Below are positions 8,447-34,022 of a DNA stretch of 34,022 bases, one piece after another. The DNA lies in contig JAUIJX010000002.1 in assembly GCA_030430795.1 (NCBI GenBank), forward strand, positions 1 through 34,022, in the 5' to 3' direction. The position numbers and the translations under genes are program-made. This DNA is from Alphaproteobacteria bacterium. GTDB taxonomy: Bacteria > Pseudomonadota > Alphaproteobacteria > Rickettsiales > UBA998. Positions within the stretch are counted from its first letter, which is position 1, and every line of letters begins with the position of its first letter. Below the pieces are notes generated by a model. It was given only the letters and a program-made list of their open reading frames with translations. It searched no databases and had not been told where the DNA came from.

Positions 8447-8461
8447 TTAACCATTGATTAA
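8447..8461. promoter_or_regulatory. perfect CtrA-type box TTAA-N7-TTAA
   Basis: ttaaccattgattaa lies in the divergent intergenic region between the lipoprotein gene and the 234-aa ORF. Confidence 0.45.
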
Positions 8462-8571
8462 AAGGTGTAAATTGTCACAGAATTGTAACAATAAGAGGTT
8501 AGGGATTAGAGGCTGGAGATAAGGGATAGTAAACCCTATACTCTGGCCTTTAACCCCTGTACTCTAACCCT

Positions 8572-9276: not shown

Positions 9277-9342
9277 CGCTTTACACATCCCGGACGATTC
9301 CTGTACATGTGAACATCATTCATTATCAAACGGGGACGAACT

Positions 9343-9729: not shown

Positions 9730-9839
9730 GTTTCGCGTGGAACATGACGCGAGGTCAGGCTTGTCCGCCGTAGCTCATAGAGCGCAGGCGGAAAACCAAG
9801 CCCTTTAGTCGTGCACAGCGCAGGAACAAAATAAAAAAC
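9730..9839. repeat. family-2 repeat, short copy F
   Basis: 9730-9759 (gtttcgcgtggaacatgacgcgaggtcagg) matches the reverse complement of 3653-3682 at 27 of 30 positions. Terminus CAGCGCAGGAACAAAATAAAAAAC matches the reverse complement of the copy-B left end (GCAGCGCAGGAGCAAATAC). Confidence 0.65.
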
Positions 9840-9844
9840 TAACG

Positions 9845-12274: not shown

Positions 12275-12365
12275 CATGCTGGTGGCGGGCGATGGACCCG
12301 CAAACCCGGTCAGGTCCGAAAGGAAGCAGCCGTAGTGGTGCTCTAATCGGGTCGCCACCAGTCTA
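12275..12365 (+). ncRNA. ffs: signal recognition particle RNA (4.5S, small bacterial type)
   Basis: Closing helix ctggtggcg (12279-12287) pairs with cgccaccag (12353-12361). Domain IV is conserved as cccggtcaggtccGAAAggaagcagcc (GNRA tetraloop). Position immediately upstream of dnaX is the classical one. Confidence 0.85.
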
Positions 12366-12380
12366 AAAACTAGAGGTCAA

Positions 12381-14129
12381 ATGTCAGAATACAGAGTTCT
12401 TGCCAGAAAATACCGCCCCCAGACATTCGACGATTTGGTCGGGCAGGACGTACTGGTGCGTACCTTATCCAATGCCATTACCACCGGCCGCATCGCCCAC
12501 GCCTTTCTCCTCACCGGTATCCGCGGCATCGGGAAAACCACCACCGCCCGCATCATCGCCCGCGCGCTGAACTGCATCGGCGAGGACGGTCAGGGCGGCC
12601 CCACCACCAACCCGTGCGGTGTCTGCCCCAACTGTACGCAGATTGCCGACGACCGCCATGTCGACGTCATGGAAATGGACGCCGCCTCACGCACCGGGGT
12701 CGGCGATATCCGCGACCTGATCGAGACCGTGCATTACGCTCCCACCAACGCGCGCTATAAAATCTATATCATTGACGAGGTGCATATGCTCTCCACCAGC
12801 GCCTTCAACGCGCTGCTCAAAACGCTGGAAGAGCCACCGCCGCACGTCATCTTTATTTTCGCCACCACCGAGATCCGTAAAATCCCGGTCACGATTCTCT
12901 CCCGCTGCCAGCGCTTCGACCTGCGCCGGCTGGACACCGAGGCACTGGCCGGACACCTCGCCAATATCTGCGCCAAAGAAAATGTACAAGCCGACGAGGA
13001 AGGCCTGCGCCTGATGGCTATGGCTGCCGAAGGTTCGGTGCGTGACGGGCTGTCACTGCTCGATCAGGCGATTGCGCACAGCATGGGTGAGAGCGAACAG
13101 ATTCATGTCGCCACCGACACCGTCCGCGATATGCTGGGGCTGGTCGACCGCACCCGCATCTTCGCGCTGCTGGAAGCCATCTGCGAAGGCGACACCGGTA
13201 AGGCGCTGGACGGGCTGGCGCAACAACACCGTGACGGCGCCGACATGTCGATGCTGTTGCAGGACATGCTAACCACCACCCATTCCATCACCCGCTGCCA
13301 TCTGGCACCGGACAGTGATCTCGGCCCGGCCTTCTCCGATGCCGAAAAAGAATACATCAAAAAACTGGCGACCAAACTCTCCATCGCCGAGCTGACTCGC
13401 CTGTGGCAAATGCTCAGCAAAGGGCTGGAAGAAGTCCGCCGCGCCGCCAACAGCAAGATGGCCGCCGATATGGTCATCATCCGCCTGACCCACGCCTCCA
13501 GCCTGCCGACCCCGGCGGAGCTGGCGCGTAAACTGAAAGACACGCCGGCACCCGCCGCCTCCACCTCACCATCCGGCGGTGGCGGCAGTTACGCCGCCTC
13601 GGCATCATCCGGTGGTGGCAATGGCGCCCATGCCGTCGGCAGCACGTCTTCCTCACCGGCACCCGCCGCCGCACGTCAGCCGGAGCTGATGTCCGCCCCG
13701 CAGGAGCACGCGGCACCCAGCCATCTGAGCCTCGCCGCCTCCAACCCGGCGGTGGAGATCAAATGTTTTGAAGACATCCTCGGCTGGTGCGAGGAACAAC
13801 GCGAAGCCATCATGCTGCACCACCTGCGCAACGAAGCACGTCTGGTCGCATGCGAGGAAGGTAAACTGAGCCTGAGCAAGGACTGCGACTTTCCGCCGGA
13901 CATTGCCAAGAAACTCGAAGCCCTGCTGCATAAGGCTACCGACCAACGCTGGCATGTCGCCTATGTCGACCGTGAAGGCCAGCCCACCGTCGTTGAACAG
14001 GAAGCCGCCCGCCGCGAAGCGGAGATTAAGGAAGCATCCGACACACCGATGGTAAAAGCAGTGCTTGAAACCTTCCCCGGTGCCAGTATTGTCGAAGTCC
14101 GTAAGCAGGAAGACATTTCAACGGAGTAG
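12381..14129 (+). CDS. dnaX: DNA polymerase III subunits gamma/tau
   Basis: 582 aa with an AAA+ clamp-loader N-terminus (LLTGIRGIGKTTTARI, zinc module CGVCPNC, IIDEVHMLS, SRCQRF) and a Gly/Ser/Ala/Pro linker. Confidence 0.95.
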   Translation: MSEYRVLARKYRPQTFDDLVGQDVLVRTLSNAITTGRIAHAFLLTGIRGIGKTTTARIIARALNCIGEDGQGGPTTNPCGVCPNCTQIADDRHVDVMEMDAASRTGVGDIRDLIETVHYAPTNARYKIYIIDEVHMLSTSAFNALLKTLEEPPPHVIFIFATTEIRKIPVTILSRCQRFDLRRLDTEALAGHLANICAKENVQADEEGLRLMAMAAEGSVRDGLSLLDQAIAHSMGESEQIHVATDTVRDMLGLVDRTRIFALLEAICEGDTGKALDGLAQQHRDGADMSMLLQDMLTTTHSITRCHLAPDSDLGPAFSDAEKEYIKKLATKLSIAELTRLWQMLSKGLEEVRRAANSKMAADMVIIRLTHASSLPTPAELARKLKDTPAPAASTSPSGGGGSYAASASSGGGNGAHAVGSTSSSPAPAAARQPELMSAPQEHAAPSHLSLAASNPAVEIKCFEDILGWCEEQREAIMLHHLRNEARLVACEEGKLSLSKDCDFPPDIAKKLEALLHKATDQRWHVAYVDREGQPTVVEQEAARREAEIKEASDTPMVKAVLETFPGASIVEVRKQEDISTE

Positions 14130-15804: not shown

Positions 15805-15873
15805 CCACTTCATTCCTAATTTTTTAATTTCGCACGGCGACGCAACTCGCCCTGCGCATTCATGGAGAATCAC

Positions 15874-16887
15874 ATGTTTAAACACTGTTTATATCTGGCT
15901 GCCATCAGCCTCATCACCACCCCGGCACTGGCCCATAACGACCACAAACGACCGGACGACCATGCCCCTATCGGCGTCATGGGCGATCACACCCATGCCC
16001 AGGGCGAATGGATGTTTTCCTACCGCTACAGCAGCATGCACATGGCCGGTAACCGCGACGGCTCCAACCGTGTCAGCACCGCCAGCGTACTGAGCAATTT
16101 CATGGTCGCGCCCACCGAGATGGACATGGAGATGCATATGTTCGGCGCCATGTTTGCCCCCACCGACAGCCTGACCCTGATGGCCATGCTACCGTACGTC
16201 GAGAAATCGATGACCCATGTCACCCGCATGGGCGGCAGCTTCACCACCGAGTCGAACGGGTTTGGCGATCTGCGCCTGAGCGGTCTCTATACGCTCTATG
16301 ACGGCATGGAGAACCATCAGGAAACCGGCGGCAAGCTACACATCAAGCTCGGCGCCAGCCTGCCCACCGGCAGCATCGACGAGCGTGACGACACCCCGGC
16401 CATGCGCAACGCCAAGCTGCCCTACCCGATGCAGCTCGGATCCGGCACTGTCGATCCGCTGCTCGGCATCACCTGGGTGCAAAAGGAGACCAACTGGTCG
16501 TGGGGAGCCGACGCCAACGCCGTCCTGCGCGTCTATGACAACAGCGACGACTACCATCTGGGCAATGAGTATCTGGCAACCTTGTGGGCGGCGCGCCCCG
16601 TCAGCCCGTATATGAGCCTGTCTGCCCGGCTGGAAGCGCGTCACTGGGGCGATATCCGTGGCGCCGATGCCGCGCTCAACCCGATGATGGTGCCGACCGC
16701 CCGCACCGATCTGCGCGGCGGTGAGCGGGTGGATGCCCTGTTCGGCGTCAATCTCTACACCCCGGAAGGCGCGGCCGCCGGTAACCGTCTGGCGCTGGAA
16801 TTCGGCCTGCCGCTCTACCAGCATCTCGACGGCCCGCAGCTGGAAACGGATTACCGCTTCACCGTCGGCTGGCAATACGCGTTTTAA
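15874..16887 (+). CDS. His/Met-rich outer-membrane beta-barrel protein (Phenol_MetA_deg-like transporter family)
   Basis: Signal peptide ..TPALA. Mature N-terminus HNDHKRPDDHAPIGVMGDHTHAQGEWMFSYRYSSMHM, then TEMDMEMHMF. Alternating beta-strand pattern and C-terminal GWQYAF. GGAGA lies 5 nt before ATG 15874. Confidence 0.7.
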   Translation: MFKHCLYLAAISLITTPALAHNDHKRPDDHAPIGVMGDHTHAQGEWMFSYRYSSMHMAGNRDGSNRVSTASVLSNFMVAPTEMDMEMHMFGAMFAPTDSLTLMAMLPYVEKSMTHVTRMGGSFTTESNGFGDLRLSGLYTLYDGMENHQETGGKLHIKLGASLPTGSIDERDDTPAMRNAKLPYPMQLGSGTVDPLLGITWVQKETNWSWGADANAVLRVYDNSDDYHLGNEYLATLWAARPVSPYMSLSARLEARHWGDIRGADAALNPMMVPTARTDLRGGERVDALFGVNLYTPEGAAAGNRLALEFGLPLYQHLDGPQLETDYRFTVGWQYAF

Positions 16888-16899
16888 TCGTTACCGGGA

Positions 16900-16997
16900 G
16901 CTTTCCTTCTTTTGTTCTGTAGGCGGAGTGTGAGACGATGTGTAGGCCCTTCTACACGAGTCGAAACACGACAAACGACAGGGCAAAAGAGGAAAGC
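16900..16997. repeat. long imperfect hairpin (possible terminator or REP-like element)
   Basis: gctttccttcttttgttctg (16900-16919) pairs with cagggcaaaagaggaaagc (16979-16997). Inner hairpin gtgtag / ctacac at 16940-16957. Confidence 0.5.
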
Positions 16998-17063
16998 GCC
17001 GCCGTAAGGAAATTGTCATATTCTTTTGCTATACTGCCCCCTTGACGCAAGAGGGGCTGTTAT

Positions 17064-18827
17064 TTGAGCATTTTCACGCATGATCTGGACACCGTCTCCA
17101 ATGAACTGGTACGCTGGCTGTGGAATAATCAGGAACACTGGTTCATTCTGGAAGATATGGCCAAAGCCGGAAAGGATGCGGATGGCCACGACACGCTCTG
17201 CTTTGACCTCCTTAAAAACAGTGATAATTTCGGATACGACATGAAAATCGGCGGTCGCGTTGGCGATTTTTCCGAAGCCCTGCGCGCCAACAGCCCGCAA
17301 ATCCTCAGCAGACTGGAACATGGCCCGGCCATTGCACTGCTGGAGGCACTCAGTCAGCATGCCGGCACATGTCTGGAAGATTTGAGCGACGAGGAACTGC
17401 GCGACATCAACGCCAAGGCATTGCAATATGTGAAGGAAACCAATCCCGGTCTGGCGCATGTGCTGGGATATGACTGGGATCACCCGTCACTGGCATTCCT
17501 CACCGGCAATGCTGATTTCGGCTTGTTTTCCAACGGCTACCAGAAGCTGATGAACGCACTGGCAGTGCTGGACACGCTCTCCCCGGAGCAGCGCATGTCC
17601 CTGAAGGAAAACATGCTGCACACACGGCAAATCCTGCTCGACCACCCACCGGAGAATGTGGCATCGCTGGATATCCGCCACTGCTACGCCTCGGAAAGCT
17701 TTGATATGTCTACCATTGAGCGCCACCGCACCGCGTTGGCGGGCGCTTTGCTCTGCCTGCCGAAAGAGCGACTGGCAGCGCTGGAAGACACGTACCGGGC
17801 GCTGAAAGACGCCGTCGCACGCTTCGCCGACCGCGAACCGCCGATCGATATGCGCCACCTGCCGCGCACCAACAGCGATGAATATGCCGCCGGGAATATC
17901 CTGCTGGAAGCGCTGGAAGCCGTTGATCCTTATACCAAAGATCAACCACCGCACCCCTATTACGCCACCATCCGCGATGCCTTGCGTGAGGTGCAGACCG
18001 ACTGGCAAAAGAAGGAAGAGAGCGGATTGGTCAGCGCGTTGCATAAGGAAGACGGTGAGCTGGATAAAGCAGAATTGCAGGCCAGTTTGCATCAGGCGCC
18101 GGAACTGCAGCGTGGCATGCGATTGCTGGAGACGCTGCAGGATCGTGATGCGGACTATTTGTTCTGTACTCCGGATGACGACCCGGTGAGCTATAACCAA
18201 GAAGTTTTCCGCTATTTCGATCTGGATAATCGCATCGACGTCTCCACCAATGTCAGCGCGCCGCTGGCCAACCGCGCCGATTACCAACGCTATGGCCCGC
18301 TTTACGCCGCATTACACACGATCGGGTTTGAACTCAACGTCGTAGCACCGGAATACATGGCCATGACTGCCGATGCATTACAGGAACTTCCCGGCAAATC
18401 CTGGCGTTTCCCGGCATTGGACAAACATACCGATAGCTTTGACCGCTTGCAGCAGATTCAGCAGCGCTTGCGGCAGCAGCAGGAAACACAGTCCACCGAC
18501 GCAGCTACTATCCCGGTGGCATCACCGGTGCTGGCCGGGTATCCACGCCTTGACCGCGCCCTCAGCAATGGCGCGCTGGATATGATCCACGATGTCTTTG
18601 ATTTTCGTGTGCCTCAGGACAATATCGAGAAAGATGAGCGCACAGAGCGCCCCAACCGGCCGGATATGCGCGACCTCAACCGCAGTATTTTCCACGGGCT
18701 TGGTCGCCTGTCCAAAGATGTCGAGGGCTTCCAGTCCTGCCGCCCGCTGCATGGCCGCAAAGCCTTCCGCCCGGATTTTGACCCCTACCCGGAGACTACC
18801 AGCGACATTATGGGGATAGGGCGTTAA
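17064..18827 (+). CDS. large hypothetical cytoplasmic protein (orphan)
   Basis: 587-aa uninterrupted ORF with TTG start and GAGGGG 7 nt upstream. No signal peptide, TM segment or motif that I recognise. The antisense 266-aa ORF has shadow-type composition. Confidence 0.65.
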   Translation: MSIFTHDLDTVSNELVRWLWNNQEHWFILEDMAKAGKDADGHDTLCFDLLKNSDNFGYDMKIGGRVGDFSEALRANSPQILSRLEHGPAIALLEALSQHAGTCLEDLSDEELRDINAKALQYVKETNPGLAHVLGYDWDHPSLAFLTGNADFGLFSNGYQKLMNALAVLDTLSPEQRMSLKENMLHTRQILLDHPPENVASLDIRHCYASESFDMSTIERHRTALAGALLCLPKERLAALEDTYRALKDAVARFADREPPIDMRHLPRTNSDEYAAGNILLEALEAVDPYTKDQPPHPYYATIRDALREVQTDWQKKEESGLVSALHKEDGELDKAELQASLHQAPELQRGMRLLETLQDRDADYLFCTPDDDPVSYNQEVFRYFDLDNRIDVSTNVSAPLANRADYQRYGPLYAALHTIGFELNVVAPEYMAMTADALQELPGKSWRFPALDKHTDSFDRLQQIQQRLRQQQETQSTDAATIPVASPVLAGYPRLDRALSNGALDMIHDVFDFRVPQDNIEKDERTERPNRPDMRDLNRSIFHGLGRLSKDVEGFQSCRPLHGRKAFRPDFDPYPETTSDIMGIGR

Positions 18828-22526: not shown

Positions 22527-22904
22527 TTAGCAGCGTTTGTACTGGCTGTTGGAACGCCCAGCAGCACCGGAGGTGATGATATTGCCGTCGGCATCGGCGG
22601 CACTGATCCAGGACTGATTGGTCAGCCCCATCTGCTCTGCCTGTTCCTGTACGTCGCGGGAGACAAGGAACATCAGCCGTTCAATCTGTTTTGGCTCACG
22701 CAAATCGTCCGGCAGCGCATTGAACAGACGATGCATGGAACGCGTCAGCGTATCCACACGGCCACGGCGCACGGCACTACCCGGCATTTCCTCGGAAAAA
22801 GACACCGTCATATCGAGTTGCGCCTGACGATACGCCTGCAGCGCATCCGGTGCAATCTCCTCTACGCGATCGATAATCGCTTCGTCATTCGCTGTCTTGG
22901 TCAT
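22527..22904 (-). CDS. hypothetical protein co-transcribed with the flgC-like gene
   Basis: 125 aa. Its ATG lies 2 nt after the flgC-like stop (TAATCATG). No family recognised. Confidence 0.55.
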   Translation of the reverse strand: MTKTANDEAIIDRVEEIAPDALQAYRQAQLDMTVSFSEEMPGSAVRRGRVDTLTRSMHRLFNALPDDLREPKQIERLMFLVSRDVQEQAEQMGLTNQSWISAADADGNIITSGAAGRSNSQYKRC

Positions 22905-22906
22905 GA

Positions 22907-23305
22907 TTAGCTCGTGATATCTAACAGGTTTTGTAACATTTCGTCAGCGGTCTCGATGGTCTTCAGGTTGGCCTTGTAGTCATACGACGCCACCTTTTGC
23001 TGCACCACCTCTTCGTCCAGACTGACATTCGGGTATTCGACCACGCCGTCCGCATCGGCAGCGGAACTGCCCGGCTGATAGACTTTCACCGTTGCCGGAT
23101 CACGGTCCACCAATTCCGTACGCACGCCACCCGTCGGCTCTAACGCAGACTGGTGAACGTCTCTCGGCGTATACGGCTCGTTGATCTTCTCCCCGTTGAC
23201 GGTCTTGGAGGTACTCTGAACATTCGCCACATTATTGGCACTGTTGGCCATACGCGTACTTGCCGCATGAAGACCAGTCAGTCCGATATTGATAGAATTG
23301 ATCAT
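22907..23305 (-). CDS. flgC: flagellar basal-body rod protein FlgC-like (orphan)
   Basis: 132 aa. N-terminal rod motif GLTGLHAASTRMANSANNVANVQST, C-terminal VEYPNVSLDEEVVQQKVASYDYKANLKTIETADEMLQNLLDI. GGAGGGG SD upstream. Confidence 0.7.
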   Translation of the reverse strand: MINSINIGLTGLHAASTRMANSANNVANVQSTSKTVNGEKINEPYTPRDVHQSALEPTGGVRTELVDRDPATVKVYQPGSSAADADGVVEYPNVSLDEEVVQQKVASYDYKANLKTIETADEMLQNLLDITS

Positions 23306-23500: not shown

Positions 23501-24844
23501 ATGCGCACGCTCGCAATTCTTTGCTCTCTTCTCACCCTCGTTTTACTCACAGACACTGCGTCTGCCGCCAGTTTCCGCTGTCCGTATCTGGCCGACAAGA
23601 CCAAACAGACCATCAGCGAGATGACACAGGGCAAAGACGGTTGGTTCTTCCGTATTCAGGGCGATCTGGAAGAAGAATTCCTGATGACCTCGGAGACGGC
23701 GCAGTATTTCACCCGCTTGGTTGATGCGCTGGATGCACGCGATACCACCTTGATTTTTATCACCATTCCCCCACGCGGCATGGTCGCTTATGACTTCCTT
23801 GACCGCAGCATTGACGTGCAGGCGGATTTCGACAAAACCAAGGCCGAGACCTCCTTTAACGATCTGGTCGTCGCCTTGCAGGGAACCGGACTGATCGCCC
23901 CCAACATCACCAGCCAGTCCGACCTCGGCGCTGACTTCTTCTTCCACCGCGACATCCACTGGACTCCGGAAGGCGCGCGCATCGCAGCCAAAACGCTGGC
24001 CTCCATCCTCAAAGACAACACGCATTTCCAAAGCATGACCCCGGCAGCCTTTGAGACGGTCGAAGCCTCGCGCCAGACCATCAAGGAGCGTATGGGGCTG
24101 GAATTGCAGCGCCTGTGCACCTCCGATATTCCGCCGGAACCGTATGTTCAGTACGAAACCCGCCGCAAGGACACCAAAGATGCCTCTGCTCTGTTTGGTG
24201 ATGCCGAAGAAAGCGAAGCATCTGTCCTCGTCGGCTCCAGCTTCAGCGCACTGGAATGGTTCAACTTCGACGGCTTTATCTCCGAATATACCGGCCTCGA
24301 CATCGCCAACCACGCCCTCGCCGCCGGGCATTTGTTCAATGCCATCGTCTCCTACACCTCCTCACCGCAATTCGTGGGTGCCCGCCCACCCTTCATGATC
24401 TGGGAAGCCCCGGCCATCTACGACCTCAACAACGACACCGCTAAATTCTTCCGCCAAGTCATCCCGGCCATCCACGGCCCCTGCGGTCCGAGCAAAGCGC
24501 TGGCCAAAGGCTCACTCACCGTCAAAAACGGTAAAGGCGGCCTGCTGATGACCCTCGACCCGGCCAAGAAAATATCCGGCAACGGCTATTTCCTGTTCAT
24601 CGAATCCAGTAACAAAGGATTGGCTGAAATGACCCTCGATCTGGAGTATGATGATGAAGACGGCGAATGGTTCACCATCGACCGCTCCGAGCATTTTAAA
24701 AACTATGGCCGCTTTTTCATCGAACTGTCCGATGACATCGAAAGCGCGCTCAGTACCGTTCAGGTAGACGGACTGTCCAATGTCAACGCGACGCTGACCG
24801 CCTATCTCTGCCAAACCCCAACAGCAAGTAACCAAGGAGAGTAA
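23501..24844 (+). CDS. algX: AlgX-like SGNH-type polysaccharide O-acetyltransferase with a C-terminal beta-sandwich-like extension
   Basis: Signal peptide, DGWFF, FFFHRDIHWTPEGA (DxHW) and VLVGSSFS (G-S-S-x-S), plus ~120 extra C-terminal residues as in AlgX. Confidence 0.75.
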   Translation: MRTLAILCSLLTLVLLTDTASAASFRCPYLADKTKQTISEMTQGKDGWFFRIQGDLEEEFLMTSETAQYFTRLVDALDARDTTLIFITIPPRGMVAYDFLDRSIDVQADFDKTKAETSFNDLVVALQGTGLIAPNITSQSDLGADFFFHRDIHWTPEGARIAAKTLASILKDNTHFQSMTPAAFETVEASRQTIKERMGLELQRLCTSDIPPEPYVQYETRRKDTKDASALFGDAEESEASVLVGSSFSALEWFNFDGFISEYTGLDIANHALAAGHLFNAIVSYTSSPQFVGARPPFMIWEAPAIYDLNNDTAKFFRQVIPAIHGPCGPSKALAKGSLTVKNGKGGLLMTLDPAKKISGNGYFLFIESSNKGLAEMTLDLEYDDEDGEWFTIDRSEHFKNYGRFFIELSDDIESALSTVQVDGLSNVNATLTAYLCQTPTASNQGE

Positions 24845-24845
24845 C

Positions 24846-25478
24846 ATGCTGAGAACCCTACTGACCTGTCTTCTGTTTCTGATCCCTGTGACTGCCTCCG
24901 CAGTCAATGACAAAGAACTCTACGACCCTGCCCCTCCGGCCGATTCGGCCTTCGTCCGGCTGGTCAACGGCGGCACCGCCAAAATCGGTGGCGTCATCGG
25001 CAACATCCAGTTCAAGAACGTTTCGGCACCGGGTGCATCGCCTTATTCTCTACTAAAAGAAGGTGTCTACGACCTGGTAGTGAACGGCAAGAAGACCCGC
25101 ATCACCATTAAGTCCGGCGGCTATTACAGCTTTGCCGTCGCCGGTGATGGCAGCGTCATCACCATCAATGACCCGCTGATCAAAAATCCGGCCAAGGCCA
25201 TGATTTATTTCTATAACCTCTCCGACGCCAAGGAAGCGAGCCTGCGTGCACCGAGCCACAACACCGACATCATCGGCAAGCAAACATCCGGCAGCGGTTC
25301 CGCCAAGGAAATCAACGCCCTGACACTGGATATCGCCATCACCGCCAATAACATCGATGTAGCCAGATACGCCAACACCGGACTGAAACGCCGCACCGGC
25401 TACAGCTTCATCCTCTCCGGCAGCGGCGCGGAGCTGAAAGGCGCCATGGTGGAAAACGGGGTCAGTAAGGCCAAATAA
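24846..25478 (+). CDS. algF: AlgF-like alginate O-acetylation protein
   Basis: 210 aa with a signal peptide. ELYDPAPPADSAFVRLVN, IKNPAKAMIYFYNLSD, KEINALTLDIAI and FILSGSGA align with Pseudomonas AlgF as I recall it. The start lies 1 nt after the algX-like stop. Confidence 0.8.
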   Translation: MLRTLLTCLLFLIPVTASAVNDKELYDPAPPADSAFVRLVNGGTAKIGGVIGNIQFKNVSAPGASPYSLLKEGVYDLVVNGKKTRITIKSGGYYSFAVAGDGSVITINDPLIKNPAKAMIYFYNLSDAKEASLRAPSHNTDIIGKQTSGSGSAKEINALTLDIAITANNIDVARYANTGLKRRTGYSFILSGSGAELKGAMVENGVSKAK

Positions 25479-25481
25479 CCC

Positions 25482-27887
25482 ATGAAGCGACGCCTCCCCC
25501 TCATCATCGCTGCCGTTGCCTGCCTGTGGAGCACCACCGCGCTGGCCGAGGGAGAATTGCTGCCGCCGGACATTGACTTCGCCAAAGTCTGTAAGGTCAA
25601 GGAACGCATCAACAAACCCTCGCGTGACTGGACCGGCTGGAACGGCAAAAAATCGTCCCTCAGCAGCGACCAGCTGATCGAACTCGGCATGCTCTACCGT
25701 TTCGGCAGTAAAGGCACCGCCAAACAGCCAGAACTGGGAGCGAAATTCTTCAGGCTGGTGGCCAAACGCGGCGACACCCGCTCACCCAAGGCCATGAACC
25801 TCTACGCGCAGATGCTGCTCAGCGGTGACGGCGTCACGCAGGATACCGAGCAGGCGATGGCGTATTTCGAAAAGGCATTGGCCGGTGGGCGCTACAAAGC
25901 CGCGCACTATCTCGGTGAAATCTATCTCGGCTTCGGCGATTACACCAAGGCCGAGTATTATTTCAAGCAATCGGCGGCCACCGGCTACCCGAAATCGGTA
26001 CTGGCGCTGGCCTATCTCTATAAAGAAGGGCTGGTCACTCCGCCTGCCGATCAAGCCGTCGACAACCTCTACACACTGGCGCAGAATATGCTGCTCGAGC
26101 GTGTCGCAAAGGGTGACTGCGTCTCCCTGTACGATATCGGCCTGATTTACTTCAAAGGCGAGTTGGTGCCCCGGAATTACACCGTCGCCGCCAAATGGCT
26201 GGAAGCCTCTGCCAGCACCGGCCTGACCAACCCCATGCTGGTGCTGGCCGAGCTCTACCGCAGCAGCAGCGTCGAGGGTGTCGGGCTGGAGCGCGTGATC
26301 ACCTTATGGCAAACTGCTGCCGCCACCGGTTCGCGTGAGGCCATGTACCATCTCGGCATGAGCTACATGCTCGGCGAAGGCGTCGGCGTCGACCGCACCA
26401 CCGGACTGGACTGGCTGAGCAAATCCGCCGCACGTGGAGAGCTGGACGCGATGGAAGCGCTCGCCCATGCTTTCTCCGGCGAATACGGGGTAGAGAAAAA
26501 CCCGAAACAGGCCGCCGAATGGATGATCAAAGCCGCCAGGCATAAGGATGTTAGCTCCGAGATTCTGCTGATGCTCGGCCATGCCTATGAGACCGGCACC
26601 GGCCTCAAACAGGACCTTCGCCAAGCGTTTCTGAATTACGAACGCGCCGCCAAAGCTGGCAGCCGCAGCGGGGTGGTCAGACTCGCCGAATCCCACATGC
26701 AGGGGCGCGGCACCAATCAGCACGCCAAAAAAGCATTGAAATTCTATCGCCTTGCCGCCTCGCGCGGCAGCAACCACGCCATGCGCAAAATGGCACACAT
26801 CTATCGCTGCGGCACCGGCGTCCCGCAAGACATGGAGAAATCCTACAAATGGCTGGAACGCGCCGTCGCCAATAAAAGTGGCGCCGCCCTGCTGGAAGTG
26901 GCAACCCTCAGATTTGAGGAAGGCAAGGAACAGGAAGGATTGCACTTTCTGGAACGCGCCGCCGAGTTGGGCAACCGCAAAGCCATGGCGACCCTGAGCG
27001 TTTATTACCTGAAACAGGGTGATAAGGACAAAGCGGAGACGTGGGAAGACGCCGCCACCGACGACGGCAAGGGCGAACGTGCGGGCTGGCTGAAACTGGG
27101 CAAACTCTACGCCCATGACGGGCTGGATGCCGACAAGGCTGTCGATTTCTTTGAAGAAGCGATCGATCTCGGTAGCGCCGCCGCCATGTATGAATACGCC
27201 AAACATCTGGAAACCGGGCGCTACGGCATGCCGCTCGATAAGGAGGAGGCGCAGGAATTATTGCAGCAATCCGCTGACGCAGGCTTCGCCAAGGCGCTGT
27301 ACTGGCTCGGCAAGGAAGCACTCAAATCAGAGGATGGAAAAACGCAGGAGAAATCCATTCCGCTTCTGGAAAAAGCCGCAGGTGGTGGAGAGATTCGTGC
27401 CATGACATTGCTGGCTGAACTCTACAGTAAAGGCGTCGGCACCATCGCCGTCAGCCGCGAAAAATCCGCGGAATGGATGGACAAAGCCGTCCACGCCTAT
27501 CCGTGCAAGGCGCACGACATCGCCGCCGTCGCCAAGAATTACGCCAAAGGCGTCGGCACCAGGCAGAACGCCCATAAAGCACTGGATCTCTACCTGCGCG
27601 CCGCCGAACTGGGCTCTCCCAATGCCATGCGTGAGTTAGGGCGCATGTATGCGCGCGGGCTTGGCGTCAAACCGGCGCCGGAAAAGAGCATCGACTGGTT
27701 CAGGCAAGGCGCGGAAAAAGGTGATGCCGCCTCCATGCTGGAACTCGCCAACGCCTATGCCTCCGGCTACGGCATCGCCACCTCCCCGGAGTTGGCCATG
27801 GAGTGGTGGAAGAAAGCCGCCGATGCCGGCAATGAAGAAGCGCGCACCCAACTGAAGCAGATGCAGGCCACCGGTTACGGTGAGTAA
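25482..27887 (+). CDS. large secreted Sel1-repeat (SLR/TPR-like) protein, AlgK-like scaffold candidate
   Basis: 801 aa with a signal peptide (CLWSTTALA) and about 19 units of the A-x-x-L-G-x-x-Y-x-x-G-x-G-V-x-x-D-x-x-x-A-x-x-W type by eye. Confidence 0.85.
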   Translation: MKRRLPLIIAAVACLWSTTALAEGELLPPDIDFAKVCKVKERINKPSRDWTGWNGKKSSLSSDQLIELGMLYRFGSKGTAKQPELGAKFFRLVAKRGDTRSPKAMNLYAQMLLSGDGVTQDTEQAMAYFEKALAGGRYKAAHYLGEIYLGFGDYTKAEYYFKQSAATGYPKSVLALAYLYKEGLVTPPADQAVDNLYTLAQNMLLERVAKGDCVSLYDIGLIYFKGELVPRNYTVAAKWLEASASTGLTNPMLVLAELYRSSSVEGVGLERVITLWQTAAATGSREAMYHLGMSYMLGEGVGVDRTTGLDWLSKSAARGELDAMEALAHAFSGEYGVEKNPKQAAEWMIKAARHKDVSSEILLMLGHAYETGTGLKQDLRQAFLNYERAAKAGSRSGVVRLAESHMQGRGTNQHAKKALKFYRLAASRGSNHAMRKMAHIYRCGTGVPQDMEKSYKWLERAVANKSGAALLEVATLRFEEGKEQEGLHFLERAAELGNRKAMATLSVYYLKQGDKDKAETWEDAATDDGKGERAGWLKLGKLYAHDGLDADKAVDFFEEAIDLGSAAAMYEYAKHLETGRYGMPLDKEEAQELLQQSADAGFAKALYWLGKEALKSEDGKTQEKSIPLLEKAAGGGEIRAMTLLAELYSKGVGTIAVSREKSAEWMDKAVHAYPCKAHDIAAVAKNYAKGVGTRQNAHKALDLYLRAAELGSPNAMRELGRMYARGLGVKPAPEKSIDWFRQGAEKGDAASMLELANAYASGYGIATSPELAMEWWKKAADAGNEEARTQLKQMQATGYGE

Positions 27888-27901
27888 CGCACCCTAATTT
27901 T

Positions 27902-28053
27902 ATTATGGAAATTTTTCCTGTGTATATCACTTATGGAAATTTCAAAATAACGGCATATTCACGCAAGTCATTTCGGGATAACCTCTCCCCTCTTCCATAA
28001 ATGTGCCTTACGAATTATGGATACAACCAGACAACATTCGGCAAAATGGAAAA
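27902..28053. repeat. AT-rich spacer with a repeated (T)TATGGAAA(TTT) motif
   Basis: Perfect 12-mers ttatggaaattt at 27902-27913 and 27930-27941. Degenerate copies at 28014-28020 and 28045-28053, and an inverted copy ttccataaa at 27992-28000. Confidence 0.7.
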
Positions 28054-28055
28054 TA

Positions 28056-29486
28056 TTAAAACTGGAAGTAGAGGAAGGGTGAGAAAGATTGCGCGATCAT
28101 TTTGATCACCGCCAACACGAACAGTGCGATCACCAATAACTGGCGGAAAACAGGCAGGCGAGCCGCCCAATCAGGCGCCAGCGTCTCACCATTGCCATGC
28201 CAGCGACGCATCAGCGTCGGCATCAGGAAGATCAACCCGTAGGCCACCAGCAGCATAAACACGTCAAACCTTGTGATATCCCAGGCCGTGCGCCCGCTCA
28301 GCCCCAGACCAGCCTCGCTCAGACCGAACATCGCCGCATACATACCCATCGCCACCTGCACATTTTCGGCGCGGAACATCACCCAGCCCAGTATCACGAT
28401 CAGGAAAGTGGCCGGCAATGCCAGCAACTGCGGATACGGCGTACCGCGCTTGCCACCTAATAACCGCTCAATCGCCAACACCAGCCCGTGCCATGCGCCC
28501 CACAGCACAAACGTCCAGTTCGCCCCGTGCCACAGACCGCCCAGCACCATCGTCAGCAGCAGATTGACGTAAGTACGCACGGCACCCTTGCGGTTACCGC
28601 CCAGCGGAATATAGAGGTAATCGCGCAGCCAGATGGACAGCGACATATGCCAGCGCCGCCAGAATTCCGTGATAGAACGGCTGATATACGGGTGATTGAA
28701 GTTCTCGGAGAATCGGAAGCCCATCATCAGCCCGAGCCCGATCGCCATATCGCTATAGCCGGAGAAATCGAAATACAGCTGCGCCGTGTAAGCCAGTGCA
28801 CCGAGCCACGCCTCCGCCATCGTCGGATCCGGCAATGCGAACATCATATCCGCAACGGAGGCCAGACTGTCGGCAATCAGCACCTTCTTGGCAAATCCCA
28901 TCGCAAACCGCACGCAGCCTTCATTGAAACGGTCAAGACTGTGTTCGCGGCTAATAAATTGATATTCGAGGTCTTTATAACGCAGCACCGGCCCCGCGAT
29001 CAGTTGCGGGAACAGGGCGATAAAGGCGGCGAAATCCAGAAACCGCCGCGCCACATGCGCATCGCCACGGAAGACATCGACCTGATAGCTAATCGCCTGA
29101 AAAATATAAAAAGAGATACCGATCGGCAGAATCACGCTCCACGCCTCCAGCGACCCTGCCCCAAGGCTGGTCAGCAGTTGATTGAACGCATCAATGCCGA
29201 AATTGAAATATTTGAAATAGCCAAGCACCGCGAGATTACCACCCACGCCCAGCGCCAGCCATCGTCGCCGCGCCGCACCTTCGGCCTCCACCATATAGCG
29301 CGATGTCGCGTAGTTATAGACCGTCACGAAGATAAACAGGAACACGAAATCCACGCGCCACCATGCGTAGAACAGGTAGCTGCCTATCAGAATCGTCAGC
29401 GAGCGCCAGCGCATCGGCGTTAGGTAATAGCTGGCGAGAAACAGCGGCAGGAACATCAGCAGAAATACGGAAGAGGAGAAAACCAT
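28056..29486 (-). CDS. algI: MBOAT-family alginate O-acetyltransferase AlgI
   Basis: Polytopic MBOAT protein. Starting at ATG 29486 gives MVFSSSVFLLMFLPLFLASYY, matching the AlgI N-terminus. TGATG overlap with the upstream algJ-like stop. Conserved WRRWHMSLS and LWHGA blocks. Confidence 0.9.
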   Translation of the reverse strand: MVFSSSVFLLMFLPLFLASYYLTPMRWRSLTILIGSYLFYAWWRVDFVFLFIFVTVYNYATSRYMVEAEGAARRRWLALGVGGNLAVLGYFKYFNFGIDAFNQLLTSLGAGSLEAWSVILPIGISFYIFQAISYQVDVFRGDAHVARRFLDFAAFIALFPQLIAGPVLRYKDLEYQFISREHSLDRFNEGCVRFAMGFAKKVLIADSLASVADMMFALPDPTMAEAWLGALAYTAQLYFDFSGYSDMAIGLGLMMGFRFSENFNHPYISRSITEFWRRWHMSLSIWLRDYLYIPLGGNRKGAVRTYVNLLLTMVLGGLWHGANWTFVLWGAWHGLVLAIERLLGGKRGTPYPQLLALPATFLIVILGWVMFRAENVQVAMGMYAAMFGLSEAGLGLSGRTAWDITRFDVFMLLVAYGLIFLMPTLMRRWHGNGETLAPDWAARLPVFRQLLVIALFVLAVIKMIAQSFSPFLYFQF

Positions 29487-30619
29487 CAGCAATCGCCTCC
29501 GCTGCAATGCTCCGGCAGCGCCACCGCATCGTAAGTGACCGGCACGAAACGCTCCGGGATCTCCCAGATCACCAGCCGTACCCCGTCTTTCATCAGCGAA
29601 TCGCTTTGCAGAAACGCCGACATCGGCGCCATCGGCCCCTCGCCCTCTTCCGCCAGATTGAGCACATCTACCTGCAGGGCACTGGCCAGCGCCCCCTCAA
29701 AGTTCCATTGTTTTTCAAAGCTATACGAGGTTCCCACCAGCACCACCGGCATCACCTGTTCGCCAAATAAATCGCTACTATCAGCCCCGGTATCTTCCTG
29801 CAAGGTCGTCGAACGCGTCAAAACCTGCTCCGCTTCCGGACCAATCACTGGACTGAAAATACCTGTCGGAATAAAATCGTACAAATCCCCTGCATAACGC
29901 TCAGCCTCACCATCCTGTGACACATAGGCCTTCCGGACACCATTATCCAGTTGTAATACAGGAAGAATAGCATCCGCTAACGCATTCGCTACCAGCTGCG
30001 CCCCCTGCGGGCTCCAATGCGTATCGGTCTTCATGAATACCGGCACATCCGCTTTCACTGCCTGTAATGCAGGCCGCAGATCAGGCGCCAATACGTCTTC
30101 ACGCTGCAATGCCGCCAGCATCCGCGCATACATCGCCTCACGCTTCGCCGACCACTGCACGCCCGGCAGATATTCCGGGTAAATCCGTGCCTTGGCAGGA
30201 ATCAACGCCACCGCTAATGTGATCCCGCGTGCCGCCAGCACCGCCTTCACCTTTGAAATATCGAGAATTTTCTGCTCAAACGCCGCCTCGCCCTCAGGCA
30301 GGAAACGAAATTCCTCATCGGTATAGAGCCAGCCATCGCGACCAACCACCACCCCGTCACCGCCATCATCAAACAGTCCGTAGGTCAGCGATGTCCACAG
30401 CGCTATCGCCCCATCGCGCACCAGCAAGGCATCTTCAAACCGTGATTCAAACGCTGAACTGGCCGTGCCCATCAGCACATCCTCCTGCGTGAGCGGCTCA
30501 TCTCCCCACACCTCCGGGTGCTGCATCAACGTCGCCATGCTGACCCCACATGCCAGCACCAGAAAAAGAAGAAACAGCCACGCCATCGGACGCGCTGTCG
30601 CTTTCTCCATACTACTCAT
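29486..30619 (-). CDS. algJ: AlgJ-like membrane-anchored SGNH-type O-acetyltransferase
   Basis: N-terminal TM anchor (WLFLLFLVLACGV), DGWLYTDEEF, KTDTHWSPQGA (DxHW), VLVGTSYS. The alternative start ATG 30610 lies just after the upstream stop. Confidence 0.8.
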   Translation of the reverse strand: MSSMEKATARPMAWLFLLFLVLACGVSMATLMQHPEVWGDEPLTQEDVLMGTASSAFESRFEDALLVRDGAIALWTSLTYGLFDDGGDGVVVGRDGWLYTDEEFRFLPEGEAAFEQKILDISKVKAVLAARGITLAVALIPAKARIYPEYLPGVQWSAKREAMYARMLAALQREDVLAPDLRPALQAVKADVPVFMKTDTHWSPQGAQLVANALADAILPVLQLDNGVRKAYVSQDGEAERYAGDLYDFIPTGIFSPVIGPEAEQVLTRSTTLQEDTGADSSDLFGEQVMPVVLVGTSYSFEKQWNFEGALASALQVDVLNLAEEGEGPMAPMSAFLQSDSLMKDGVRLVIWEIPERFVPVTYDAVALPEHCSGGDC

Positions 30620-32816
30620 GAGATGCGCCTTTTTGCAGCATCAGCGATGCTTTGTAGTGCCCGCCAGCGGCTGCGCGCTGGAGATAACGCCGCGCTTCCG
30701 ACGGGTTGCGCACCACGCCTTCGCCGGTCAGCAACGCCCGTGCATAGGCGTAATCGGCATCCGGCTGCGCATGATGCGTTGCCCGCTCAACCCACTGAAT
30801 ATACTGCCGAATATCTTGCGATTGCCCTTCCAGCGGATAATAATAGAGATAGGCCATATTCAGCATCGCCTTACCGTTGCCGCGATCCGCCGCTTCAGCA
30901 ATCAATTCCTTGCCCTTCTCAATATCCGGCTCCACCCCGGTGCCAGCGAGATAGGCGAGGCCCAGATGCCGCATCGACTCCGCATGTCCGAGCGTCGCCC
31001 CGCGCTCAAAATAGCGGAAGGCACGTTCGGCATCGCGCGGCACCACTACCCCGGCAGTCAGCAGCAAGCCCGCTTCCAGCATGGCGTTGAGGTTGCCTTT
31101 CGCCGCCGATTGTTCCATCAACGCCACCGCATCCTCCGCCGTGTAGCCCTCAACCGCGCCCCACAGCACCATGCGCGCCAGCTCCAGCATCCCACCCGGA
31201 TCGCCGCCAGCCGCCGATTTCTCAAACCACAGAAACGCTTTCTCCAGATTCTTATCCAGCCCATAGCCATTTTTATAGGCTGACCCGATCAGCGACATCC
31301 CGGCATAATCGGTCTCACTGATCTGTTCCTCCGCCTTGGTGAAATACTCACGCGCCAGCTCTTCATCCAACGGCGCACCCTGCTCGTTGGCATACGCTTT
31401 GGCCACCGCGATGATCCCGTCGATATCCTCAGCCTCCGCCGCCCGTTCATACCAGATGAATGCTTTATCATGATCCACCGCACCGAACGTGCCGTCGCTA
31501 TAATGATCGCCGAGTGCCAGCATCGCCTGCACATGCCCCTGCTCGGCAGCGGATATCAGCAGCGTCTTGGCCACACCGTAGGCCCCACGCTCCAGATAAA
31601 TCTTACCCATCTTATAGACATCGTCCGCCGAACTGGCCGATGCTTCCCGCGCCTTTTCCAGGTACGAGAGCGCCAGCACCTCGTCCTTCTCCACGCCATT
31701 CCCCTCAGCAAACGCATGATAAAGGGAGAGCATTGCGGAGACGGAACCACTTTCCGCCGCTGAACGTAAATAGGTGACCGCCTGCTCGGTATCGCCCTCA
31801 CGCGTATAGTAACGCGACAAATCCTGAATCGAGCTGCCATGCCCGGCATGCGCCGCCTTCTCCAGCCACTCGAGCGCCTCTTCATCAGTCAGCAACAGGT
31901 AATAGCTTTCCCCAACCAGCAAGCGCTCACCCAGCTCACCGGCTGCCTTCAGCGAACCGGACGCCACCGCCATCCGCGCGTAACGCGTGGCTTCTTCACG
32001 ATCCCGCGGCACACCCTGCCCGTTACCCAGCATCCGCGCCATCGCCAGCATCGCACCGGGCTCCCCGGCATCGCTGCCTTTGCTGTACCATGCCATCGCC
32101 TGCGCATCGTCTTTCGGCACCAGCAGCCCTTCGAAATAGAGATCACCCAGCATTTCCGCCGAACGGCCATGCCCTTTTTCCGCACGGTTTTGAAGCAATG
32201 CCGTCCCCAGCGTAATCAACCCGTCCACCTCATCATCTGACTTTGCCGTAATGCTTTGTTGCTTCAGCAGTCGCGCCAGGGCCAGCGCCGCTTCCCCTCT
32301 CTGGTCGCGCAGTGCAAACCGGTACTGCTCCGCCGCCGCCTCCGCATCGGATGGATGACCTTTATAGCCGGTTTCCAACAACTTGCCGTAGGTATAGGCC
32401 GAGGATGCATGCCCCTGACGAATCGCTTCTTCCAGCAACGCCACCGCTTCCTCCGCATCGCGCTTGGTACCTTTTCCCTCAATCAGCAGCCGTGCCAGCG
32501 CATGCATGGCGCTTTGTACTTCACCGCTACGCTTGCCAATCCTATTGGCCAGATCAATCGCCTGACGGTAATAATGCGCCGCCTTGGCATTCTTCGGCTG
32601 CTCCAGCCCGTCCTTATTGATGTAATTGGCGTAAGCATCTCCCAGCGTCACATAGGCTGACACGGAGTTTTCCGCCTCCAACGCCCCCACCTGTTTCTGA
32701 AAGGCCGCCGTGTCCTGCTGGCGCAACGCCATCATCAACGCATCCAGCTGATCATCCGCCCATACGGGGGATGCCAGCAGACACAGTGACAGAGCGAGAC
32801 AGGCCGAACGCATCAT
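30612..32816 (-). CDS. large secreted Sel1-repeat protein, second AlgK-like scaffold candidate
   Basis: Start taken at ATG 32816 (MMRSACLALSLCLLASPVWA signal peptide), which overlaps the algL-like stop as TAATG. About 17-18 Sel1 units by eye. Confidence 0.85.
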   Translation of the reverse strand: MMRSACLALSLCLLASPVWADDQLDALMMALRQQDTAAFQKQVGALEAENSVSAYVTLGDAYANYINKDGLEQPKNAKAAHYYRQAIDLANRIGKRSGEVQSAMHALARLLIEGKGTKRDAEEAVALLEEAIRQGHASSAYTYGKLLETGYKGHPSDAEAAAEQYRFALRDQRGEAALALARLLKQQSITAKSDDEVDGLITLGTALLQNRAEKGHGRSAEMLGDLYFEGLLVPKDDAQAMAWYSKGSDAGEPGAMLAMARMLGNGQGVPRDREEATRYARMAVASGSLKAAGELGERLLVGESYYLLLTDEEALEWLEKAAHAGHGSSIQDLSRYYTREGDTEQAVTYLRSAAESGSVSAMLSLYHAFAEGNGVEKDEVLALSYLEKAREASASSADDVYKMGKIYLERGAYGVAKTLLISAAEQGHVQAMLALGDHYSDGTFGAVDHDKAFIWYERAAEAEDIDGIIAVAKAYANEQGAPLDEELAREYFTKAEEQISETDYAGMSLIGSAYKNGYGLDKNLEKAFLWFEKSAAGGDPGGMLELARMVLWGAVEGYTAEDAVALMEQSAAKGNLNAMLEAGLLLTAGVVVPRDAERAFRYFERGATLGHAESMRHLGLAYLAGTGVEPDIEKGKELIAEAADRGNGKAMLNMAYLYYYPLEGQSQDIRQYIQWVERATHHAQPDADYAYARALLTGEGVVRNPSEARRYLQRAAAGGHYKASLMLQKGASHE

Positions 32817-33919
32817 TAGGGAAGCACCTCCGGATTCCACCAGAAGCACGTCGCGTTCCCGCCACTGAAATCGTCAATCAGCGGCCGCTCGGCAAAAATC
32901 GGACGCATCACATGCAGCAACCGCCTGGCGGTCAGGTCTTCCTGCTCATGGGAGAGATATGCCTCGGCAAACGCCATGTAATGCCGTCCATGCGGCCGCA
33001 CCTGAAGCATCCCCATATCCTGTGTGAAATAATCCTGACTCGGCCCCGGCTTATAATTCTCCGAGGCATAAGGTAATACCACCGACGGTGATTCCAGCCC
33101 CGCCAGATAGAATTGCATAATCGTATCCAAGGTTTTGCCGTCCACCTCCATACGGTAGAAATTATCGCCGTGCGCGAGCGCTACTTCCGCCATCACCACC
33201 ATGCTGGCCAGCGACTGGCGCATATACCACAGCGCCCGCGACCCACGCCGTGTCTCCAGCGGCAGGCTGCCATCCGCGCGCGCATCGCTCAGAATCGTTC
33301 GGAACCGGGATTCACCTTTGCCATACAAGCTGTTATCCCCACTATACGCCCCCCACGCCATCAGCGTCGCATCGGCCAGATAGCGGTGATTGTTATGATC
33401 CACATCGCCGTCAAACGTCTTATCGAGCGGCCTGACCACCGCGTCAATCCATTCGCTCACCTGCTCACGTGAGGCCGTATCCATCGCCTCGTCCACCACC
33501 GAGAATCCCACGATCACCGGCAACATCGCCCGCTTCAGTGCATAATAGGTGTCATGCTCCGCATCGCCCTCTAGCAACGCTCTGGCACTGGCCCAACGTT
33601 TCAGAATCGCGATCAGCGCCTGCTGCGACTTGGCATCCCCGGCCAACGCTCGCCCGGTCAACACCGACACGTACCAGCTAAACGGCTCGGCGCTGGTATC
33701 CACACCATAGCCGTCCTTGGTCACAAGTGATGCAATCGGCTCCGGCTTCTCTTCCAGCTTCTCGCCATACGCCATGCAGGCGTCCTTCACCTTCTCATAC
33801 GCCGCGCTTTGCAACTGTTCACGCCGCTTCTCGACGTCAAACAGCACATTCGCCGCCTGAGCCTGCACCCCGGCCATCAGCCACAGTGCCATCATCCATA
33901 TCCCGACTCGCATCATCAT
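32816..33919 (-). CDS. algL: AlgL-like poly(beta-D-mannuronate) lyase (PL5 family)
   Basis: 367 aa with a signal peptide. HNNHRYL (compare NNHSYW), DGSLPLETRRGSRALWYMRQSL and a C-terminal FSGGNATCFW resemble AlgL blocks. Confidence 0.8.
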   Translation of the reverse strand: MMMRVGIWMMALWLMAGVQAQAANVLFDVEKRREQLQSAAYEKVKDACMAYGEKLEEKPEPIASLVTKDGYGVDTSAEPFSWYVSVLTGRALAGDAKSQQALIAILKRWASARALLEGDAEHDTYYALKRAMLPVIVGFSVVDEAMDTASREQVSEWIDAVVRPLDKTFDGDVDHNNHRYLADATLMAWGAYSGDNSLYGKGESRFRTILSDARADGSLPLETRRGSRALWYMRQSLASMVVMAEVALAHGDNFYRMEVDGKTLDTIMQFYLAGLESPSVVLPYASENYKPGPSQDYFTQDMGMLQVRPHGRHYMAFAEAYLSHEQEDLTARRLLHVMRPIFAERPLIDDFSGGNATCFWWNPEVLP

Positions 33920-33920
33920 C

Positions 33921-34022
33921 TTATCCTTCCTCTCCGGCAGCGGCTTTCTCCGTCAGGCACGGATTATCCCGAAACCGGTCAATCAGATCACCCTGCCCGT
34001 CACCCCTGAAAAACCCTTCCTT
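33921..34022 (-). CDS. 3' end of an upstream ORF of the same operon (product unknown)
   Basis: The minus-strand frame is open from the window edge: KEGFFRGDGQGDLIDRFRDNPCLTEKAAAGEEG-stop. TAA lies 1 nt before the algL-like ATG. It does not end in an aromatic residue, so it is unlikely to be an OM barrel. Confidence 0.35.
   Translation of the reverse strand, partial: KEGFFRGDGQGDLIDRFRDNPCLTEKAAAGEEG

Follow-up and report, generated by a model that had tools for sequence, protein, structure and literature searches.

Modification genes of a probable alginate-type exopolysaccharide cluster at the end of an alphaproteobacterial contig

Introduction

The stretch of DNA examined here (34,022 bp, hereafter the window; contig JAUIJX010000002.1 of assembly GCA_030430795.1, from an uncultured alphaproteobacterium) closes with a group of genes resembling those that O-acetylate and cleave alginate, with no polymer synthase in view, and the question it raises is whether these genes form an orphan module serving some other polysaccharide or belong to an alginate cluster that continues out of sight. 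In Pseudomonas, the polymer is not acetylated unless AlgI, AlgJ, AlgF and AlgX are all present, AlgF mediates the interactions between AlgJ and AlgX, AlgX binds the TPR protein AlgK, and AlgL clears polymer from the periplasm (PMC3815931, PMC10641220, PMC9734138); on experimental grounds, Pseudomonas and Azotobacter are the two genera credited with bacterial alginate (PMC3815931). Our data indicate that the region is very probably the modification half of an alginate-type, synthase-dependent exopolysaccharide cluster. The window is the whole contig, its right edge is the end of the assembly, and the contig stops inside the cluster; the absence of a synthase is thus very probably an assembly artefact.

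The truncated gene at the edge of the contig

An open reading frame (ORF) of the minus strand runs in from the last base of the window (34022) and stops at a TAA (33923-33921) 1 nt before the ATG of the lyase gene, and its 33 codons and stop (33921-34022, minus strand) encode the C-terminus of an AlgG-type fusion protein, the gene being cut by the contig end. The translation reads KEGFFRGDGQGDLIDRFRDNPCLTEKAAAGEEG* (the asterisk marking the stop), and the last residues of the AlgG-type protein include ...KEGFFRGDGQGDLIDRFRDNPC.... Given that this open frame ends 1 nt before the lyase, the lyase is not the first gene of the minus-strand operon. The 33-residue fragment carries the pattern C.FR..G.F.GDGQ..L..R....C, which is common to the proteins encoded upstream of the lyase in related loci. 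In a search of the whole window, translated in six frames, with a C-terminal profile built from 11 AlgG-type proteins of those loci, the edge ORF scored 24.4 bits (E=8e-7) and the next best segment had E=0.22; the best tblastn match of the AlgG-type protein from one related locus (L021) against the window also fell at the edge ORF. An earlier, model-made account of this DNA (the sequence-only reading) overlooked this truncated eighth gene (34022-33921, minus strand) and reported no Alg8, Alg44, AlgE, AlgG or AlgD in the final 10.5 kb, a statement that holds for complete copies throughout the window, which has no porin gene either.

Seven intact genes in two convergent operons

Seven intact ORFs (23501-33919) form two convergent operons, X-F-Sel1 on the plus strand and (G*)-L-Sel1-J-I on the minus strand, where G* stands for the AlgG-type gene. 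This is the operon structure that the sequence-only reading had described, and its assignment of the seven ORFs to the ALGX, AlgF, Sel1, MBOAT and polysaccharide lyase 5 (PL5) families is borne out by Pfam and solved-structure matches that agree, with all Pfam matches above the gathering score (22.2 bits in the case of Alginate_lyase). The plus-strand operon encodes an AlgX-like protein (23501-24844; 447 aa; Pfam ALGX PF16822, 148.8 bits), an AlgF-like periplasmic adaptor (24846-25478; 210 aa with a signal peptide; AlgF PF11182, 93.1 bits) and, as its last gene, a long periplasmic Sel1-repeat protein (25482-27887; 801 aa with a signal peptidase I (SPase-I) type signal peptide; ten Sel1 repeats, 270 bits), the AlgX stop and AlgF being 1 nt apart and AlgF and Sel1 3 nt apart. 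An AT-rich gap of 168 bp (27888-28055) separates the operons; its sequence was inspected, and the terminator scan predicted no intrinsic-terminator-like site within it.

Read inwards from the contig end, the intact genes of the minus-strand operon encode an AlgL-type PL5 polysaccharide lyase (32816-33919; 367 aa with a signal peptide; Alginate_lyase PF05426, 83 bits), a second long periplasmic Sel1-repeat protein (30612-32816; 734 aa from the ATG at 32816, with a signal peptide; eight Sel1 repeats, 230 bits), an AlgJ-like protein which by homology is a membrane-anchored O-acetyltransferase (29486-30619; 377 aa; ALGX PF16822, 260 bits) and an AlgI-type MBOAT membrane acyltransferase (28056-29486; 476 aa from the ATG at 29486, in an ORF reaching up to 29507; MBOAT PF03062, 107 bits). 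The junctions quoted earlier, TAATG (32814-32818), ATGAGTAG (30612-30619) and TGATG (29484-29488, where the MBOAT start overlaps the AlgJ stop), were read on the minus strand and are exact. The second Sel1 ORF can be extended to a GTG at 32849, and the start consistent with the junction is the ATG at 32816; the length of 745 aa reported before is thereby corrected to 734 aa.

Comparison with solved structures in the PDB tells the two ALGX proteins apart as AlgX-like and AlgJ-like. The first matches AlgX (4KNC/7ULA) at E=1e-37 and AlgJ only at E=1e-16, its alignment to AlgX extends through the C-terminal carbohydrate-binding domain (as far as query residues 416-437), and its D151, H153 and S247, in the motifs DIHW at 151 and GSSFS at 245, align with the AlgX triad. 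The second matches AlgJ (4O8V) at E=3.9e-63 and AlgX at E=1e-13, has an N-terminal hydrophobic anchor at residues ~12-31, and aligns with AlgJ at DTHW (199) and GTSYS (296), which hold the triad D199/H201/S298. The AlgF-like protein aligns with AlgF (6CZT) at E=1.9e-14 over residues 24-204, nearly its full length. The MBOAT protein carries WRRWHMSL at residue 276, reaches 156 bits on the DltB model and is 62-64% identical to its orthologues in related loci, the L021 orthologue being named AlgI by IMG. For the lyase, the comparison with the PL5 lyase A1-III (1HV6, E=1.7e-18) aligns the NNH and R...Y catalytic residues, found here in NNHRY at 176 and RRGSRALWY at 224, and its 518 homologues at E<=1e-20 include several named poly(beta-D-mannuronate) lyase and many Microvirga species. 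The motifs DIHW, GSSFS, DTHW, GTSYS, NNHRY and RRGSRALWY of the earlier account are accordingly present, each at a verified position.

Related loci and the presumed remainder of the cluster

In order to see what would be expected to the right of the contig end, we compared the region with related loci, of which 15 were found by their lyase in GTDB species genomes, five by their lyase in metagenomes, and the rest via homologous proteins (L021-L024 and L026, L022 being a duplicate of L021), which makes 24 distinct cluster loci in all; L025, which shares its contig with L024, is a flank locus. All cluster loci have, immediately upstream of the lyase, a gene for an AlgG-type protein of 900-1,260 aa, and wherever the contig extends, Alg44-like and glycosyltransferase family 2 (GT2) genes lie upstream of it, so that the layout of the relatives can be written (D)-8-44-(A)-G*-L-Sel1-J-I-X-F-Sel1, with X-F-Sel1 appended or inverted. 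The C-terminal half of the AlgG-type protein (L015) scores 320 bits on the AlgG model NF038177 and matches AlgG in the PDB at E=1e-70, with DPHD conserved. The Alg44-like protein combines PilZ and HlyD domains, is recognised by the Pfam models BSH_ALG44 and Beta-barrel_ALG44, and gives E=1e-14 against the PilZ structure of Alg44. The GT2 protein (~505-530 aa) gave no match in the NCBIfam and PDB searches, and its identification as Alg8 is drawn from its Pfam GT2 families, its position in the cluster and its IMG name; the automatic IMG annotation of L021 lists Alg8, Alg44, a C5 epimerase, AlgJ and AlgI. Many loci also encode a dehydrogenase that scores 443 bits against the P. aeruginosa GDP-mannose 6-dehydrogenase versus 258 against the best UDP-glucose dehydrogenase, and several encode an AlgA-type GDP-mannose pyrophosphorylase/phosphomannose isomerase (GMP/PMI) above the equivalog cut-off; together, the two enzymes point to GDP-mannuronate as the precursor. 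A divergently oriented Sel1 lipoprotein gene and a BBP2_2 (PF10082) porin gene are found in several loci.

The alternative that the module serves another polyuronide or polymer (acetylated glucuronan or cellulose, for example), with borrowed alginate-type enzymes, has to be weighed at this point. The synthase and precursor genes are outside the window, all alginate equivalog cut-offs are missed, the closest PL5 lyases include 7FHU, a 'polysaccharide lyase' not named as alginate-specific, and the survey of Bundalovic-Torma et al. 2020 (PMC7112194) describes Wss systems in which homologues of AlgI and AlgJ serve acetylated cellulose. Nevertheless, we consider this alternative unlikely, since an AlgG-type gene is the one truncated at the window edge, the clusters of the relatives hold AlgG with DPHD, the Alg44 Pfam domains, the AlgD-type dehydrogenase and the AlgA-type GMP/PMI, and neither the window nor any related locus showed Bcs or Wss genes. 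The sequence-only reading had left two options, a synthase beyond the right edge or a different polymer, and the contig end, the AlgG-type fragment and the relatives favour the former, the latter being unsupported. It had also held that a canonical block immediately to the right would make this an ordinary, merely rearranged alginate cluster; rearranged it is, and canonical it is not, given the extended AlgG of the relatives and their lack of an AlgE-family porin. Very probably, then, what is seen is the alginate machinery in a rearranged alphaproteobacterial form, and not an independent module for some other polymer.

The strongest indirect evidence on what would lie to the right of 34022 comes, by sequence comparison, from contig JBGTBD010000002.1 (122 kb) of GCA_041749475.1, which carries the housekeeping neighbourhood of the window. 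Local rearrangements apart, the common flank keeps largely the same order and comprises ExoEndoPhos, M23, IlvD, YajQ, YbaB, DnaX, FtsK, LolA, RecR, RmuC and GlmU, and the IlvD proteins are 81% identical. About 5 kb past this flank, AlgX-AlgF-Sel1 is convergent with AlgI-AlgJ-Sel1-lyase, as in the window; an additional lyase gene and a gene for 157 aa are also present, and the cluster continues with AlgG*-Alg44-GT2, then the divergent Sel1 lipoprotein and the BBP2 porin. By analogy, the minus strand to the right of the window edge would encode an AlgG epimerase fused to a helical N-terminal domain of ~700 aa, an Alg44-like cyclic di-GMP (c-di-GMP) co-polymerase and an Alg8-like GT2 synthase, and genes for a Sel1 lipoprotein and an outer-membrane porin of the BBP2 family would be expected, in divergent orientation, beyond the synthase.

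The relatives also show that the acetylation genes come in separable sets. There are none in the Rhizobium and Microvirga loci, only I and J in L002, L006, L019, L020 and L023, and X and F in addition to I and J in L003, L004, L005, L015, L024 and the window. In L003 and L004 the order lyase-(Sel1)-J-I-X-F-Sel1 lies on one strand, while X-F-Sel1 is inverted in L015, L024 and the window. The two-operon split is thus an inversion of the X-F-Sel1 cassette, and the presence of one SGNH enzyme and one scaffold in each operon, which the sequence-only reading had singled out, is the outcome of this inversion and not a design.

Such free gain and loss of modules (Rhizobium and Microvirga without acetylation genes, several loci without X-F), along with the mere 33 visible codons of the AlgG-type gene, could also suggest that in this genome the cluster is a decaying remnant that has lost its synthase and kept the modification genes and an AlgG-type fragment. 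We regard this as very unlikely, given that none of the seven genes is truncated or disrupted, their catalytic residues, signal peptides and tight junctions being in place, that the AlgG-type frame runs uninterrupted to the final base, where the contig itself gives out and no other genes follow, and that the colinear relative holds the complete set. A catabolic locus centred on the lyase for the use of external alginate, which the PL5 lyase and the one or two extra PL5 copies in relatives might recall, is scarcely credible in a region without transporters, oligo-alginate lyases or uronate-metabolism genes, where the lyase is translationally linked to the acetyltransferases and, in the relatives, to synthase, co-polymerase and epimerase.

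Two further features of the related loci were recorded. The N-terminal extension of the AlgG-type protein, ~700 aa behind a signal peptide, gave weak TPR/PPR-like helical-repeat matches only (L015, L024 and L021; the epimerase genes with the extension lie at 6363-9980, 6408-10001 and 6231-10004 of these loci, respectively). In the closest relatives the X-F-Sel1 operon ends with one or two extra PL5 lyase genes (L015 16006-17088; L021 16020-18398; L024 16508-17608), and L024 also has a 157-aa gene without a family match; the window has no extra lyase gene, only the 168 bp.

Points against the alginate reading and the Sel1-repeat proteins

Several observations weigh against an alginate cluster. 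The synthase, co-polymerase, porin, AlgD and AlgA of this genome itself are not visible. No protein reaches the curated cut-off of the alginate NCBIfam equivalog models, so that we are dealing with distant homologues: the lyase scores 60 bits against a cut-off of 366 on the alginate lyase equivalog, the L015 AlgG-type protein falls short of its cut-off of 700 with 320 bits, and the two window Sel1 proteins reach 71 bits (801 aa) and 53 bits on the AlgK model NF038194, against a cut-off of 700. The related loci yielded no AlgE-family porin, their porin genes matching only BBP2_2. AlgX and AlgF are missing from many loci of the lineage, unlike in Pseudomonas, where AlgX is needed for export. No relative closer than ~53% lyase identity was found in the genome and metagenome collections or in a search of 5.8 billion proteins, and the literature searched holds no chemically characterised polymer from any member of the lineage. 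Finally, the window Sel1 proteins are not AlgK-like.

As judged from their sequences, the two Sel1 proteins of the window are not AlgK orthologues. Besides the low scores on the AlgK model, the 801-aa protein matches AlgK in the PDB at E=2e-6 and generic Sel1 proteins at E=2e-41, and the signal peptides of both window proteins and of their orthologues are of the SPase-I type and lack a conserved lipobox cysteine; equation of the window proteins with AlgK is therefore not supported. Orthologues of the 801-aa protein sit after AlgF in L003, L004, L015 and L024, and those of the 734-aa protein, at 33-34% identity, after the lyase in L001, L015, L021 and L024. The lipobox-bearing Sel1 protein of the relatives (512-743 aa) is encoded by a third gene, beside the BBP2 porin, and this lipoprotein, whose counterpart here would lie outside the window, is the better analogue of AlgK. 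Since both window Sel1 types persist in Rhizobium and Microvirga loci without acetylation genes, they are more likely general periplasmic scaffolds than acetylation-specific parts.

Proposed mechanism

If the steps known from Pseudomonas are transferred by homology, Alg8 and Alg44 would polymerise GDP-mannuronate into polymannuronate, and AlgI, the MBOAT protein, would hand acetyl groups across the membrane to the membrane-anchored AlgJ. AlgF would then bridge AlgJ and AlgX, and AlgX, with its SGNH triad and carbohydrate-binding module, would O-acetylate mannuronate residues, leaving the non-acetylated residues to be epimerised by AlgG. The PL5 lyase would clear stray polymer from the periplasm, and the two long soluble Sel1 proteins may act as lineage-specific periplasmic scaffolds.

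Comparison with known systems

With the Pseudomonas and Azotobacter operon algD-8-44-K-E-G-X-L-I-J-F-A (PMC3815931), the window shares homologues of AlgX (with its carbohydrate-binding module), AlgF, AlgI, AlgJ and AlgL, and the relatives share Alg8-, Alg44-, AlgG- (DPHD), AlgD- and AlgA-type genes, the system being synthase-dependent with a PilZ domain. Unlike that operon, the window has two convergent operons in a non-canonical order, and the relatives have an AlgG with a helical extension of ~700 aa and a BBP2_2 porin in place of AlgE. The role of AlgK apparently falls to the Sel1 lipoprotein of 512-743 aa, and two additional soluble Sel1 proteins of 730-980 aa are present. Extra PL5 copies in some loci, acetylation genes in the form of optional cassettes, and low identity, below the NCBIfam cut-offs, complete the differences. 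The AlgK-AlgX-AlgF-AlgJ complex of P. aeruginosa (PMC9734138, PMC10641220) offers another parallel, with the same four acetylation proteins and with TPR/Sel1-type proteins encoded alongside; the likeness would fit a repeat-protein scaffold holding AlgX and AlgF. The Sel1 proteins of the window exceed AlgK in length by ~60-70% and have no conserved lipobox.

'Atypical' alginate operons of environmental bacteria were surveyed by Bundalovic-Torma et al. 2020 (PMC7112194), whose supplementary table gives AlgD-AlgA-Alg8 ... AlgF-AlgI-AlgJ-AlgX for the alphaproteobacterium Dinoroseobacter shibae. The atypical loci in that survey resemble ours in being alginate-type, outside Pseudomonas and Azotobacter, with rearranged modification genes and no detectable AlgK or AlgE. 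The order in Dinoroseobacter differs, and neither AlgG nor AlgL is listed for it in the passage concerned. The survey gives presence/absence calls only, and the AlgG fusion, the lyase-Sel1-J-I and X-F-Sel1 arrangements and the Sel1 lipoprotein with a BBP2 porin do not figure among those calls. In the literature searched we found, apart from this survey, no account of an AlgG fusion combined with a BBP2 porin, multiple long Sel1 proteins and cassette-like acetylation genes. The Wss acetylated-cellulose system (WssF-I) is similar in that an MBOAT protein (WssH) and an AlgJ/AlgX-like SGNH protein (WssI) O-acetylate a synthase-dependent polymer. Unlike in Wss, BcsA/B/C-type genes are present in no related locus, and AlgF, the AlgX with a carbohydrate-binding module, the AlgG-type epimerase, the Alg44 domains and the GDP-mannose dehydrogenase point to alginate.

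Flanking genes

The flank of the cluster is alphaproteobacterial, as the sequence-only reading had supposed: IlvD homologues in metagenome-assembled genomes (MAGs) are 81-86% identical, and the named ones are labelled Rickettsiales or Alphaproteobacteria. The housekeeping proteins (window 1-23300 compared with L025) are 48-81% identical, except the M23 peptidase (41%), and the alginate-cluster proteins are 33-63% identical to those of the colinear relative, so the cluster appears to have diverged faster than its flank. Directly upstream of the algX-like operon and divergent from it, two small genes (22527-23305, minus strand) encode a 132-aa flagellar basal-body rod protein (Flg_bbr_C) and a 125-aa ORF without a family match, leaving a promoter region of 195 bp. 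A bacterial small signal recognition particle (SRP) RNA gene (ffs; 12276-12367, plus strand; RF00169, 53.9 bits) lies immediately upstream of dnaX (12381-14129), ybaB and recR; it was the sole match in the Rfam scan of the window, and there were no tRNA genes.

Between recR and rmuC, two genes (15862-18827, plus strand) unrelated to the alginate genes encode a 341-aa secreted beta-barrel protein with a His/Met-rich N-terminus (15862-16887; Phenol_MetA_deg, E=7e-10) and a 587-aa acidic protein without a family match (17064-18827). As recR and rmuC are adjacent in L025, this 3.4-kb gene pair looks like an insertion. The two ORFs were considered as the missing porin and scaffold and rejected, given that they resemble neither the porins nor the Sel1 proteins of the relatives and have no relevant Pfam match, and that the pair is not found between recR and rmuC of the colinear relative.

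Implications

For the earlier finding, the value of this analysis is mainly corrective, an apparent orphan modification module being explained by a contig end. The architecture differs from that of Pseudomonas and is uncharacterised, and routine annotation already recognises its genes. With 518 homologues of the lyase, it is also widespread. The loci are carried by uncultured MAGs labelled 'Rickettsiales', Micavibrio, Pseudoxanthobacter, Microvirga and Rhizobium, some of the carriers being cultured: Microvirga lupini and Rhizobium wuzhouense W44 have the core genes only, and Pseudoxanthobacter sp. M-2 has the core with I-J. We would put at about even the chances that they represent a distinct and widespread alphaproteobacterial alginate machine, with AlgG joined to a helical domain of ~700 aa, a Sel1 lipoprotein and BBP2 porin standing in for AlgK and AlgE, two extra soluble Sel1 scaffolds of 730-980 aa, and J-I and X-F as optional cassettes. 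If this machine is functional, alginate production, with acetylation in some of the carriers, would extend well beyond Pseudomonas and Azotobacter, and AlgX would be dispensable for export in the lineage. The lineage also offers natural experiments in export without AlgE, in the fusion of AlgG, and in loci that carry no acetylation genes, J-I only, or J-I together with X-F.

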